Below, piece by piece: positions 77 to 56,432 of a stretch of DNA of 64,000 bases. The notes under the pieces were generated by a model. That model saw nothing but the letters and a program-made list of their open reading frames with translations, did not search any database and was not told the origin of the DNA. Numbering within the stretch: position 1 is the stretch's first letter; each line of letters starts with the position of its first letter. The position numbers were made by a program, and so were the translations under genes. Origin of the DNA: Escherichia coli (GTDB taxonomy: Bacteria; Pseudomonadota; Gammaproteobacteria; Enterobacterales; Enterobacteriaceae); the NCBI RefSeq assembly GCF_965641715.1, contig NZ_OZ282453.1; one strand, 5' to 3'.

Positions 77-1663
77 ATGGCACATCCACCACGGCTGAAT
101 GACGACAAACCGGTTATCTGGACGGTATCTGTAACGCGCCTGTTCGAGCTGTTTCGCGATATCAGCCTCGAGTTTGATCACCTGGCGAACATTACCCCTA
201 TTCAGCTTGGCTTTGAAAAAGCAGTGACCTACATCCGCAAGAAACTGGCAAACGAACGCTGTGACGCCATCATCGCTGCTGGCTCTAACGGCGCGTACCT
301 GAAAAGCCGCCTATCAGTGCCAGTTATTTTGATTAAACCGAGCGGCTACGATGTGTTACAGGCACTGGCAAAAGCCGGAAAACTCACCTCTTCTATCGGC
401 GTTGTCACTTATCAGGAAACTATTCCGGCACTGGTGGCGTTTCAAAAAACCTTTAATTTGCGCCTCGATCAACGTAGCTACATTACCGAGGAAGACGCAC
501 GCGGGCAGATTAACGAGCTAAAAGCTAACGGCACCGAAGCGGTGGTCGGTGCGGGGCTGATTACCGATCTGGCAGAAGAAGCCGGAATGACCGGAATTTT
601 TATCTATTCCGCCGCCACCGTGCGCCAGGCGTTCAGCGATGCGCTGGATATGACGCGCATGTCGTTACGCCATAACACTCACGATGCCACCCGCAACGCC
701 CTGAGAACTCGTTACGTGCTGGGCGATATGCTCGGTCAATCACCACAGATGGAACAAGTACGGCAGACTATTTTGCTGTATGCCCGCTCCAGTGCAGCGG
801 TGTTGATTGAGGGGGAAACGGGGACGGGCAAAGAGCTGGCGGCCCAGGCAATTCATCGGGAATATTTTGCCCGCCACGATGCGCGACAGGGCAAAAAGTC
901 GCATCCGTTTGTTGCCGTCAACTGCGGGGCGATTGCCGAATCGCTGCTGGAAGCGGAGCTGTTTGGCTATGAGGAAGGGGCGTTTACCGGCTCGCGACGC
1001 GGAGGTCGTGCCGGGCTGTTTGAAATCGCCCACGGTGGCACGCTGTTTTTGGATGAGATTGGCGAAATGCCGCTACCTTTGCAGACCCGGCTGCTGCGGG
1101 TGCTGGAAGAAAAAGAGGTCACCCGCGTCGGCGGGCATCAGCCTGTTCCGGTGGATGTACGGGTCATTAGCGCCACTCACTGCAATCTGGAAGAAGATAT
1201 GCGGCAAGGGCAGTTTCGCCGTGACCTGTTTTATCGGCTGAGTATTTTGCGTCTGCAATTGCCACCACTGCGCGAGCGGGTGGCGGATATTCTTCCGCTG
1301 GCGGAAAGCTTTTTGAAAGTGTCTCTGGCGGCGCTCTCCGCCCCGTTTTCTGCCGCATTACGCCAGGGATTACAGGCAAGCGAAACCGTGCTGGTGCACT
1401 ACGACTGGCCGGGCAATATTCGAGAACTGCGCAATATGATGGAGCGACTGGCGCTGTTTTTAAGTGTGGAACCGACGCCGGATTTAACGCCGCAGTTTTT
1501 GCAGCTGCTACTGCCGGAGCTGGCGCGCGAGTCGGCGAAAATTCCCGCTCCACGCTTACTGACACCACAACAGGCACTGGAGAAATTTAAAGGCGATAAA
1601 ACAGCAGCGGCGAATTATTTAGGCATCAGCCGGACGACGTTCTGGCGGCGGCTGAAAAACTGA
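77..1663 (+). CDS. prpR: Sigma-54-dependent propionate catabolism regulator PrpR
   Basis: 528 aa from first ATG inside tool ORF 65..1663; N-terminus [20 protein letters not shown]+ Walker A GETGTGKE and GAFTG sigma-54 contact motif; C-terminal HTH. Confidence 0.9.
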
Positions 1664-1665
1664 AC

Positions 1666-1697
1666 TGCCGAATGCAGCGCGAACGCTTTATCCGGCA
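1666..1697. repeat. Single REP-like palindromic unit between convergent prpR and yahO
   Basis: tgccgaatgcagcgcgaacgctttatccggca closely resembles one palindrome of the REP units in the array at 8409..8953. Confidence 0.55.
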
Positions 1698-1763
1698 TAA
1701 ATTTCAATAGATGATGATCACCGATAAACTTACGCATCGGGGATGTTTACATAGGGTTCAGAA

Positions 1764-2039
1764 TTACTTCTTCTTATAAATATTTGCCGTGCCGTGGATC
1801 TTATTGTCAGTTTGACCGGAGGTCAGTACCAACACATCAGCCCCTTTTTCATCCGCTTTTTTGATCAAATCCTCTTTCGCATCTGCGGTCGACATTTCAT
1901 TACTGGTTGAAATATCACCTATTTTTTCATATTGCGATTCGACTTTTTCAAATTCCGCTTTAGTCATCAATTCAGCGGCATAGACATTGGTAACGGCAAA
2001 CGCTAACGCACCGACTAACATTTTAGAGATTATTTTCAT
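1764..2039 (-). CDS. yahO: Small periplasmic protein YahO (DUF1471/YhcN family)
   Basis: 91 aa with N-terminal signal peptide [21 protein letters not shown]; matches remembered YahO. Confidence 0.85.
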
Positions 2040-2185
2040 ATTACGGCTCCAGAGTTGTTATCACACTATCACCCACCCACATTATTGGGTTGATTAATAA
2101 TTAGTTCAGTCAAGGCATAAACGCCAGTAACCGGAAATAAGACACTTTGTGATCTCTCTCGCACCCGATTATTTTTGGTAGAAAT

Positions 2186-2857
2186 ATGATGAAGTTACTT
2201 CACTTATTTATGGATGAAATCACTATGGATCCTTTGCACGCCGTTTACCTGACCGTAGGACTGTTCGTGATTACTTTTTTTAATCCGGGAGCCAATCTCT
2301 TTGTGGTAGTACAAACCAGCCTGGCTTCCGGTCGACGCGCAGGGGTGCTGACCGGGCTGGGCGTGGCGCTGGGCGATGCATTTTATTCCGGGTTGGGTTT
2401 GTTTGGTCTTGCAACGCTAATTACGCAGTGTGAGGAGATTTTTTCGCTTATCAGAATCGTCGGCGGCGCTTATCTCTTATGGTTTGCGTGGTGCAGCATG
2501 CGCCGCCAGTCAACACCGCAAATGAGCACACTACAACAACCGATTAGCGCCCCCTGGTATGTCTTTTTTCGCCGTGGATTAATTACCGATCTCTCTAACC
2601 CACAAACCGTTTTATTTTTTATTAGTATTTTCTCAGTAACATTAAATGCCGAAACACCAACATGGGCACGTTTAATGGCCTGGGCGGGGATTGTGCTCGC
2701 ATCAATTATCTGGCGAGTTTTTCTTAGTCAGGCGTTTTCTTTGCCCGCTGTGCGTCGTGCTTATGGGCGTATGCAACGCGTTGCCAGTCGGGTTATTGGT
2801 GCAATTATTGGTGTATTCGCGCTACGCCTGATTTACGAAGGTGTGACGCAGCGGTGA
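2186..2857 (+). CDS. yahN: LysE/RhtB-family amino-acid exporter
   Basis: 223-aa hydrophobic multi-TM protein, matches remembered YahN. Confidence 0.85.
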   Translation: MMKLLHLFMDEITMDPLHAVYLTVGLFVITFFNPGANLFVVVQTSLASGRRAGVLTGLGVALGDAFYSGLGLFGLATLITQCEEIFSLIRIVGGAYLLWFAWCSMRRQSTPQMSTLQQPISAPWYVFFRRGLITDLSNPQTVLFFISIFSVTLNAETPTWARLMAWAGIVLASIIWRVFLSQAFSLPAVRRAYGRMQRVASRVIGAIIGVFALRLIYEGVTQR

Positions 2858-2873
2858 GCAGATAATTTACTCT

Positions 2874-3119
2874 CTACGTAATCAACCTGATTTGCCGAAT
2901 CCCGACCATCGGCGATGATAGCCCCCGTAATGCGTGGTCCTTATTTCCGATAAGTTTACTTGAGTCTTTAGCTTCCCATTTCAGCCCACTCTCCCCTGTG
3001 TGGGCTTTTTTCATTGGTCTGACCCGTCCTGAATAGCCAAACAATGGCAATGTTCCACTTTGCAGGGATGATAATAAGGGGATCTGATTCAGAAGAGTTT
3101 TGAAAAGTTGGACCGCCAT
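2874..3119 (-). CDS. yahM: Small uncharacterised protein YahM
   Basis: 81 aa from internal ATG of tool ORF 2874..3149; no recognisable motif; the yahN terminator hairpin lies on its antisense strand. Confidence 0.45.
   Translation of the reverse strand: MAVQLFKTLLNQIPLLSSLQSGTLPLFGYSGRVRPMKKAHTGESGLKWEAKDSSKLIGNKDHALRGLSSPMVGIRQIRLIT
2984..3011 (+). terminator. Intrinsic terminator downstream of yahN
   Basis: perfect 6-bp stem gcccac/gtgggc, 10-nt loop, then TTTTTT; about 125 nt after the yahN stop. Confidence 0.55.
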
Positions 3120-3531
3120 CGAGGCCTCGAACCCCGTACCATACAACAATCCTGGTTGTCGTCTGCTCTTCCTGATGAGCTAATGGCGGTTTTTGATATG
3201 AGCCTTACAGCATATTTTCTGTCAGGCTTGAGTGCGATGCGTAAGGTACAGAAAAGACCCCACACAAACATGATGGAATTATGATTTTTTTCATATGAAT
3301 GTCAACCCACACATTCACAAAACATCTGCATGAGATCATTTTTTATACACCGCATGGCTGCGAAACCACTACTGGTGCTTTTTTAAGCGAAGCGTCGCCG
3401 ATCACAACAAAATATCGGCGAAAAAGGCGGTGGAATGCCATTTGGCATACGGATATACAGATGAAATGATTACCTGCATTGCGATTCACTCTCTGGTGGA
3501 ATAACAACTTGCAGGTGGAACCCTTTCTGAA

Positions 3532-54115: not shown

Positions 54116-54445
54116 ATGAGCAATCTGAATCCATGCATGACGTGTGGTGCCTGTTGTGCATTTTTCCGCGTCTCTTTTTACTGGGCCGAAGCCGACGATG
54201 CTGGCGGCACTATTCCCGCCAGGCTCACTGAACAAATATCCCCTTTTCACCGATGCATGAGCGGTACCAATCAGAAAAACCCCCGATGTATTGCCCTTGC
54301 AGGAACCCCGGGCAAAAATGCCTGCTGCACGATATATAAAAATCGATCGTCCACATGCAGAGAATTCGCCATGTCTGGTGAGAACGGAGTCGTCAATGAG
54401 GCTTGCAATCGTGCAAGGGCTAAATACGGGCTGACACCGTTATAA
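54116..54445 (+). CDS. ykgJ: Cysteine-cluster protein (putative zinc/iron-chelating domain)
   Basis: 109 aa with [11 protein letters not shown] cluster plus further Cys residues. Confidence 0.8.
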
Positions 54446-54464
54446 ACATAAATTAATTGCACTG

Positions 54465-54497
54465 CCCCGCCAGCGATAATAGCGGGGCTTCGTTTTT
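54465..54497 (+). terminator. Intrinsic terminator after ykgJ
   Basis: stem ccccgc/gcgggg with 11-nt loop, followed by cttcgTTTTT. Confidence 0.6.
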
Positions 54498-54644
54498 CAG
54501 GGGTAACAAAACCCGAAACTTCTTCTATTTGCCAGCAACAATGCCTCTCTTCTGTAGCGTTCTTCGGATCTACATCATCCTAAAGTAGCGCGATATACTC
54601 ACTGACTATCTGAATCAGAATATAAAAAGCAATGTTTTTAACCT

Positions 54645-54676
54645 ATAAAAATGGCGCTGTATTTGCGCCATTTTTA
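54645..54676. terminator. Bidirectional terminator between convergent ykgJ and yagU
   Basis: 8-bp stem aatggcgc/gcgccatt flanked by an A-run upstream and T-run downstream. Confidence 0.65.
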
Positions 54677-54688
54677 TCATTCAATGCA

Positions 54689-55303
54689 TTATCTGTTTGA
54701 GCCTAAGGGGATCTCAGGGTCTGGCTCATGAGTAATTCTGTTTCGTAAATCTCTGCGAATAATTTCAATGGACCAGAACCAGACTAAATGTCCAAAAATT
54801 TCAGAAACATTCTCATACCACGGGAGATCAAACAGAGGTGGTGTCAGTCCCATGAGAGGGAATGAAATCATATGAACAAAAAGTTGGGCTAAAGCACCTG
54901 CCAGTAAGCCCTGCCAGAGTTTAATTTTTGGAAATACTTCAGCGACCACACAATAACCGACAGCAAACACTATCGAAAAGATAATGTGCGTAACACCAAC
55001 CCAGTTAAAGACATGCCCGGCAAAGGTATAAACAGCCGCATTGGGATCTGTCAGCCCCAGCCAGTCTCGAAGAAAAATATACGGAGGATTGAGAAAATTA
55101 CGCGAGCAATCAATTTGCCCAGCAGCCCTGATTAATGATTCCGGGCCACACGCTGCATTAAACATATCCACCGGGCTACGTGGCGGCAATGGAACTTCAG
55201 CCCCCCACTTCACAAATGCGGAAACAACGCCAGCAATCAGCCCAATGAATGCAGCAAGACCATAACGTCTGCGGTTCGGTGGAGTTTGTTCAAATATATT
55301 CAT
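54689..55303 (-). CDS. yagU: Inner-membrane protein (DUF1440)
   Basis: 204 aa with several hydrophobic helices; matches remembered YagU. Confidence 0.85.
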
Positions 55304-55400
55304 ATCTACCCTGCTTGTACCATTATGTTATACACCTCTTTAGGAGTATTCATAAAACAAGGTAAATGTAAAGAACTGTATTGTTTTGTATAACAAGATG

Positions 55401-55444
55401 GTTGTCTAATCGCCAAAGAATAGTTGTCTAATCGCCAAAGAATA
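55401..55444. repeat. Perfect 22-bp tandem duplication in the yagU-paoA divergent intergenic region
   Basis: gttgtctaatcgccaaagaata occurs twice back to back (55401..55422 and 55423..55444). Confidence 0.9.
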
Positions 55445-55742
55445 TAAGCACCATCATTTCTCCCTATTTTTATATTAGAAGTGACATAGATTTGCAGGGT
55501 GATGCAGAGCTGACAATCACAGGTTTCCTTATCGGTTTTTGCATCGTACAACTAAAGCAATAAACCAGCTCCCATCATCATCAACATCCCGGCGAACATG
55601 AATTTATTAGCCGGGCTCATAGCTGCATTCGCGTTTTAAGAATAATCCTCCTGCTGTCGCCGACTATGCTTAACGTTTAAAAAAGCATCAGCACTCTCGC
55701 AACGCACTCTTATTTTCCCCTTTAGAATACCGGAGGCCTGGT

Positions 55743-56432
55743 ATGAGCAACCAAGGCGAATACCCCGAAGATAATCGGGTTGGGAAGCACGAGCCGCACG
55801 ATTTTAGTTTGACCCGTCGCGATCTGATTAAAGTGAGCGCCGCAACGGCGGCGACCGCCGTGGTTTATCCTCATTCTACGCTTGCGGCAAGCGTTCCGGC
55901 AGCTACACCCGCGCCTGAGATAATGCCCCTGACACTTAAGGTGAACGGCAAAACCGAGCAGCTTGAAGTGGATACCCGAACCACGCTACTGGACGCTTTG
56001 CGTGAAAATCTGCATTTGATCGGTACCAAGAAAGGTTGCGATCACGGACAGTGCGGAGCCTGTACCGTGCTGGTCAATGGTCGCAGGCTTAATGCCTGCC
56101 TGACGCTGGCAGTCATGCATCAGGGGGCCGAGATCACCACCATTGAAGGACTGGGTTCACCAGATAATCTTCACCCCATGCAGGCGGCCTTTATCAAGCA
56201 TGATGGCTTCCAGTGCGGCTACTGCACCTCCGGGCAAATTTGCTCATCAGTAGCGGTGCTAAAAGAGATTCAGGACGGCATTCCCAGTCACGTCACGGTC
56301 GATTTGGTTTCCCCTCCAGAAAGAACTGCCGATGAGATCCGTGAACGTATGAGCGGCAACATCTGTCGCTGTGGTGCATACGCTAACATCCTTGCCGCCA
56401 TTGAAGACGCTGCGGGGGAGATAAAATCATGA
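55743..56432 (+). CDS. paoA: Periplasmic aldehyde oxidoreductase, 2Fe-2S subunit
   Basis: 229 aa; Tat signal [18 protein letters not shown]; two [2Fe-2S] cysteine motifs ([11 protein letters not shown] and [11 protein letters not shown]). Confidence 0.92.

Follow-up and report, generated by a model that had tools for sequence, protein, structure and literature searches.

The region between the divergent genes yagU and paoA of Escherichia coli carries, in the stretch of DNA analysed here (64,000 nucleotides; hereafter, the window), a perfect tandem duplication of 22 bp that arose once and was inherited as its lineage diversified. It serves as a heritable marker of that lineage rather than being a new, private mutation. 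The explanation that best accommodates the evidence, with a probability of roughly 0.62, is that a single slippage-type duplication has been inherited within a weakly constrained spacer, where it would leave paoABCD unaffected and would alter the expression of yagU by a small amount or not at all.

The repeat and its setting

Based on both a direct reading of the sequence and the output of Tandem Repeats Finder (period 22, 2.0 copies, 100% matches, score 88), the unit GTTGTCTAATCGCCAAAGAATA occurs twice at 55401-55444, head-to-tail, without mismatch and without a spacer, as the first-pass annotation of this DNA had described. The distances given there, about 100 bp from yagU and about 300 bp from paoA, were likewise accurate, there being 98 bp between the repeat and the yagU ATG and 299 bp between it and the paoA ATG, within an intergenic region of 439 bp. 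Neither flanking base extends the repeat (G at 55400 versus the unit's last base, A, and T at 55445 versus its first base, G), and it is therefore exactly 44 bp long. No further occurrence of GTTGTCTAATCGCCAAAGAATA was found in the 64-kb window, even with up to three mismatches allowed. The copies are perfect, 100 shuffles of the sequence produced 0 matches to the 22-bp unit, and the repeat is beyond what chance would give. Relative to the mapped yagU transcription start site (TSS), the duplication spans positions -81 to -124. The features of the region are collected in Table 1.

Table 1. Coordinates of the yagU-paoA region in the window
Feature	Position	Strand	Description
yagU	54689-55303	-	DUF1440, acid-induced inner-membrane protein; ORF listing and RefSeq annotation of homologous loci
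yagU TSS and -10 element	TSS 55320; TATAAC 55332-55327	-	17-nt leader; sequence identical to K-12; poor -35 element
CpxR ChIP-exo footprint, equivalent of	~55357-55399		-37 to -79 from yagU TSS; ends 1-2 bp before the repeat
CpxR/OmpR-type half-site run	55362-55392	+	GTAAA 55362-55366, GTAAA 55368-55372, GTATT 55378-55382, GTATA 55388-55392
Copy 1 of 22-bp unit, yagU-proximal	55401-55422		-81 to -102 from mapped yagU TSS
Copy 2 of 22-bp unit, paoA-proximal	55423-55444		-103 to -124 from mapped yagU TSS; single-copy genomes align to one copy only
paoA	55743-56432	+	first gene of paoABCD; ORF listing and RefSeq annotation of homologous loci

Several open reading frames cross the repeat, including one of 81 aa in the window and one annotated by PGAP as 'hypothetical protein' (WP_000074141.1) in O145 strains; these were set aside as gene-caller noise, since their frame, length and presence vary by strain and by caller. 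On the other side of yagU, between that gene and ykgJ, there is a full-length match to the Rfam family IS009 at 54484-54683 on the minus strand (189.8 bits versus a gathering score of 117), which corresponds to the 166-nt sRNA EcsR2 (PMC4350180). It was the only hit in a permissive-threshold scan of 54400-56000, a scan that found no Rfam family in the yagU-paoA intergenic region.

Distribution and ancestry of the duplication

The intergenic region was matched in 4,911 of 5,426 complete E. coli genomes, yet the two-copy form was present in none of those 4,911 and no match extended over the full 439 bp. The best matches, which belong to the O157:H7/O55:H7 group, span 417 bp, and other groups have 416, 406 or 405 bp; similarly, an 84-base query centred on the junction returned just two pieces, which overlap and together span 62 bp, the pattern that a single copy leaves. 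Universal conservation, which the first-pass annotation had named, in combination with a lack of regulatory effect, as an outcome that would refute its proposal, is thus not what is seen. When aligned, the window equals the O157 Sakai sequence plus 22 bp and one SNP, the SNP allele being alike in both copies. Among the GTDB species-representative genomes, an exact 20-mer of the unit gave 0 hits, and therefore the genome of the window and any other carrier are missing from that collection, whose E. coli representative bears another allele. There were also 0 hits for the junction 24-mer CGCCAAAGAATAGTTGTCTAATCG in the JGI metagenome contigs. Taken whole (1-64000), the window reaches an identity of just 98.0-99.0% with the best match among the 5,426 complete E. 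coli genomes, and which strain comes closest changes from segment to segment. Its source is an E. coli lineage that has no complete RefSeq genome, and it is because this lineage is not represented among the complete genomes that the duplication is missing from them.

Carriers were sought as contigs that encode exactly the PaoA, PaoC and PaoB alleles of the window, or the PaoB allele of L016, itself one of the carriers. Six other GenBank assemblies, deposited by different submitters, have the same duplication (L016, L018-L021 and L023), bringing the number of carriers, the window included, to seven. In L018-L021 the intergenic region is 439 bp long, and over 7.4 kb these assemblies match the window at 99.81-100% identity, the carriers GCA_910705265.1 and GCA_012100115.1 being at 100% over this length. 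L016 and L023 have an intergenic region of 436 bp, made up of the same duplication together with a 3-bp deletion just on its yagU side; identity between L016 and the window is 99.35% over 3.1 kb. The number of copies is exactly two, both perfect, in every one of the seven, and three copies were seen in none. In a neighbour-joining tree built on 2,766 gap-free flank columns, with the extra copy masked, all seven carriers are monophyletic, with a within-clade divergence of 0-0.54% and the nearest non-carrier at 0.69%. The single-copy progenitor allele, identical in unit and flanks, exists in three O145:H28-type strains (L003, L004 and L010). Since there are six other carriers, which form one clade with the window and whose progenitor is known, the duplication is not an artefact, nor is it a recent private mutation, and it is virtually certain to be both real and inherited. 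The suggestion of a recent slipped-strand event can be kept as regards its type, given the single copy in L003, L004 and L010 and the polymorphism among E. coli; 'recent', on the other hand, does not fit a clade whose flanks differ by up to 0.54% and which has split into 439-bp and 436-bp allele types.

The 3-bp deletion shared by L016 and L023 (window equivalent 55394-55396) converts TATAACAAGATG to TATAAGATG and has the last CpxR-type half-site on one side of it and the repeat on the other. The net change in length in this sub-branch of the carrier clade is +19 bp, not +22 bp.

The yagU control region

All functional data on the region derive from K-12, and coordinates were transferred to the window by gap-free alignment from the yagU ATG to the unit. 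In K-12, transcription of yagU starts 17 nt upstream of the ATG (184 reads; Kim et al. 2012, PMC3415461), and a CpxR ChIP-exo peak covers the segment 54-96 bp upstream of the ATG (K-12 302894-302936; Choudhary et al. 2020, PMC7657598). The gene is a direct CpxR target whose expression rises when cpxR is knocked out (log2 +3.6 in ethanol, +2.0 in LB; PMC7657598), and CpxR therefore represses it. The footprint takes in the four half-sites of Table 1, of which the last three (55368-55392) are in 10-bp phase, as is expected of a regulator of the OmpR/PhoB family, and the half-site stretch is invariant in 13 strains. A ChIP-seq summit for OmpR lies at -75 from the yagU ATG (~55378) in K-12, where induction of ompR activates yagU two-fold, and a weak ChIP-seq summit for Nac lies at -103 from the ATG, inside the unit (Aquino et al. 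2017, PMC5217608). Physiologically, few genes are induced by acid as strongly as yagU, which also helps the cell to survive at pH 2 (PMC2270276, PMC1626474). In all carriers YagU is intact, and the protein is identical to that of K-12.

Two promoters proposed by consensus scans were rejected. TTTACA-N16-AATACT disagrees with the mapped start at 55320; TAGACA-N17-AACAAT, by which the repeat would be a duplicated working -35 element, disagrees with the same start and is not conserved in K-12. An RcsAB-box-like sequence, TATGAATACTCCTA (two mismatches), is located at 55341-55354 on the minus strand, where it coincides in part with the -35 region of the yagU promoter as mapped, and it is a candidate lead for the activation of yagU. 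Following an acid shift, yagU is co-induced with genes of the Rcs regulon (PMC2270276). Some E. coli lineages have a disrupted yagU, L032-L036 having a stop after 34 codons and L030 and L037 a frameshift that leaves 83 aa; apart from these, YagU is 100% identical across phylogroups.

A regulator site within the unit?

The main rival to a near-neutral duplication, although an unlikely one, holds that the unit is or contains a regulator site for yagU, with a site for Nac, a distal low-affinity site of the OmpR/CpxR family, or a site for another factor as candidates. The doubled copies, two turns apart and thus on the same face of the helix, would then strengthen binding and alter the induction of yagU by acid, which would make the duplication a possibly adaptive cis-regulatory change. 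The case for Nac begins with the K-12 summit that falls inside the unit, but that peak, obtained in an induction experiment, is a weak one (height 4) and is resolved no further than ChIP-seq allows. A Nac-like ATC-N9-TAT is present at 55431-55445, but it is one mismatch away from ATA-N9-TAT, a low-information motif of only six specified bases, and is one of three such matches in the 439 bp; furthermore, it spans the right-hand boundary of the repeat, and its equivalent in the other copy is degraded to ATC-N9-TAG.

The location of the unit, at -81 to -102 and adjoining DNA bound by CpxR and OmpR, is typical of upstream activator sites. Against this, in K-12 data, which are not from a carrier strain, the in vivo CpxR footprint stops short of 55401 and the OmpR summit is at ~55378, both leaving the unit uncovered. 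There are no GTAAA-type half-sites in the unit. A scan for CpxR-like boxes that allowed up to two mismatches found none in 55401-55444, all boxes lying between 55329 and 55392, and scans with the OmpR 20-mer and RcsAB-box consensus sequences gave no match within the unit. With the CpxR footprint and the OmpR summit beside the unit and no CpxR-type half-sites inside it, the idea of a duplicated regulator binding site, raised in the first-pass annotation, does not find support. Conservation of the unit's core, CTAATCGCCAA, extends across phylogroups, the duplication has been kept in seven of seven carriers, and the standing of yagU among the most strongly pH-regulated genes makes its control region a plausible target of selection (PMC2270276, PMC1626474), all of which would suit a functional site; the flanks of the unit, however, are hypervariable among strains. 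More doubtful still is the specific proposal that a doubled site, for Nac or for some other factor, at -92 and -114 rewires the response of yagU to pH or nitrogen in this lineage, possibly as an adaptation.

The comparison with direct-repeat operators of the OmpR/PhoB family (CpxR GTAAA-N5-GTAAA and tandem OmpR sites) is instructive in both directions. Like them, the duplication is a direct repeat just upstream of a promoter bound by CpxR and OmpR, and its 22-bp period, near two helical turns, resembles that of tandem OmpR sites. Unlike them, it has no half-sites and stands outside the ChIP-exo footprint, the genuine half-site run being the neighbouring one at 55362-55392, and the unit is single-copy in almost all E. 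coli.

The paoA side and the remaining alternative

It is unlikely that paoA is affected. Its only mapped start is a weak one (4 reads) in K-12, located 7 nt upstream of the ATG (~55736; PMC3415461), and the repeat lies 292-335 bp upstream of it. That the duplication alters expression of paoABCD, for instance as a moved or doubled distal operator of the divergent pao promoter, is accordingly hard to credit: the repeat does belong to the intergenic region that the two genes share, and proximity led to the formal assignment of the CpxR ChIP-exo peak to both paoA and yagU, but paoA is not among the direct targets of CpxR (PMC7657598), the spacing on the paoA side of copy 2 is unchanged by a tandem duplication, the nearly invariant 140 bp proximal to paoA are untouched, and no regulator of the pao operon was found in the published literature. 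The earlier expectation of altered expression of the aldehyde oxidoreductase (pao) operon thus looks unlikely, with the repeat some 290 bp from that weak start and the paoA-proximal side as it was.

The 140 bp upstream of paoA (55600-55742) hardly vary among 13 diverse strains, at 0-2 variable columns per 20, in contrast to the remainder of the intergenic region. They had no Rfam match in the permissive-threshold scan of 54400-56000 and may be a conserved leader of paoABCD or a control element. Further into the operon, paoB is an annotated frameshifted pseudogene in the closest complete relatives, i.e. O145:H28 strains and strain 99-3311 (L003 2527-3062; L004 12411-13366), and is intact, at 318 aa, in the window.

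Least probable of all, to the point of being scarcely credible, is that the repeat is a sequencing or assembly artefact, as the first-pass annotation had allowed; nothing speaks for this beyond the absence of the two-copy form from the complete genomes, the JGI metagenome contigs and the species-representative genomes. As regards the complete genomes, that absence reflects a lineage missing from the collection (98.0-99.0% identity at best), and the artefact reading is effectively refuted by the six other assemblies from different submitters, whose two allele types are set apart by a 3-bp deletion and by SNPs.

Origin and consequence of the duplication

For the preferred reading, an inherited slippage-type duplication of little effect, the proposed course is that a single event, either replication slippage or unequal exchange, struck the GTTGTCTAATCGCCAAAGAATA allele that is still single-copy in O145:H28-type strains, and that the two-copy form, passed on vertically, is now fixed in a small E. 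coli lineage. The junction is without exact microhomology, offering only an imperfect similarity between AAGATG and AAGAATA (5 of 7; from a 2.2-copy alignment of Tandem Repeats Finder), and for that reason slippage is plausible but not proven. Two patches of the intergenic region vary the most, and the yagU-side edge of the unit is one of them, with 7-10 of 20 columns variable and several independent indels of 1-3 bp, whereas the adjoining yagU promoter has 0-2 variable columns per 20 and its half-sites do not vary in 13 strains. The second hypervariable patch is at 55566-55595, and there an 11-bp indel, CATCAACATCC, is missing in the 405- and 406-bp alleles; the same indel also disrupts a 22-codon ORF on the minus strand.

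Among known kinds of sequence change, the best parallel is with slippage-type intergenic duplications, which this one resembles in its perfect, head-to-tail and spacer-free copies, the single-copy progenitor in relatives, the indel-prone and weakly constrained site, and the inheritance within a clade. It differs from them in having no exact flanking microhomology and a copy number of one versus two only. Phase-variable (contingency) promoter repeats offer a second likeness, in that a repeat upstream of a promoter differs in copy number between strains. Contingency loci, however, consist of many units of 1-7 bp whose number varies among close relatives, whereas here there are two copies of 22 bp, and exactly two in 7/7 carriers across a clade divergence of up to 0.54%. 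As for the target-site duplication of a mobile element, the two copies abut, with nothing inserted between them. The duplication is a fresh instance of an ordinary class, and it represents no departure from known kinds of variation.

In terms of consequence, the duplication is situated immediately upstream of the DNA to which OmpR and the repressor CpxR bind in vivo, without reaching into it, and the change amounts to moving the two halves of the intergenic region 22 bp further apart and adding a spare copy of the -81 to -102 segment, which is without a demonstrated binding site. Since 22 bp represents ~2.1 helical turns, the relative helical face is shifted by just about one base pair. Moreover, because the duplication is tandem and its outer junctions are preserved, each flanking gene keeps an intact proximal copy at the original spacing. 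The duplication is probably near-neutral, then, albeit with three observations on the other side: the conservation of the unit core CTAATCGCCAA, the weak K-12 Nac summit inside the unit, and the persistence of two perfect copies in all seven sampled carriers, the last being compatible with selection but also with drift over this time scale.

Significance

Taken alone, the duplication is of little importance. Its junction 24-mer, CGCCAAAGAATAGTTGTCTAATCG, nevertheless provides a clean molecular marker for an E. coli lineage that is rarely sequenced, and the one-copy and two-copy alleles constitute a natural comparison with which the poorly characterised control region of yagU may be dissected. 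If it is true that the extra copy changes the output of yagU, the locus would illustrate, on a small scale, how duplication can bring about cis-regulatory evolution.
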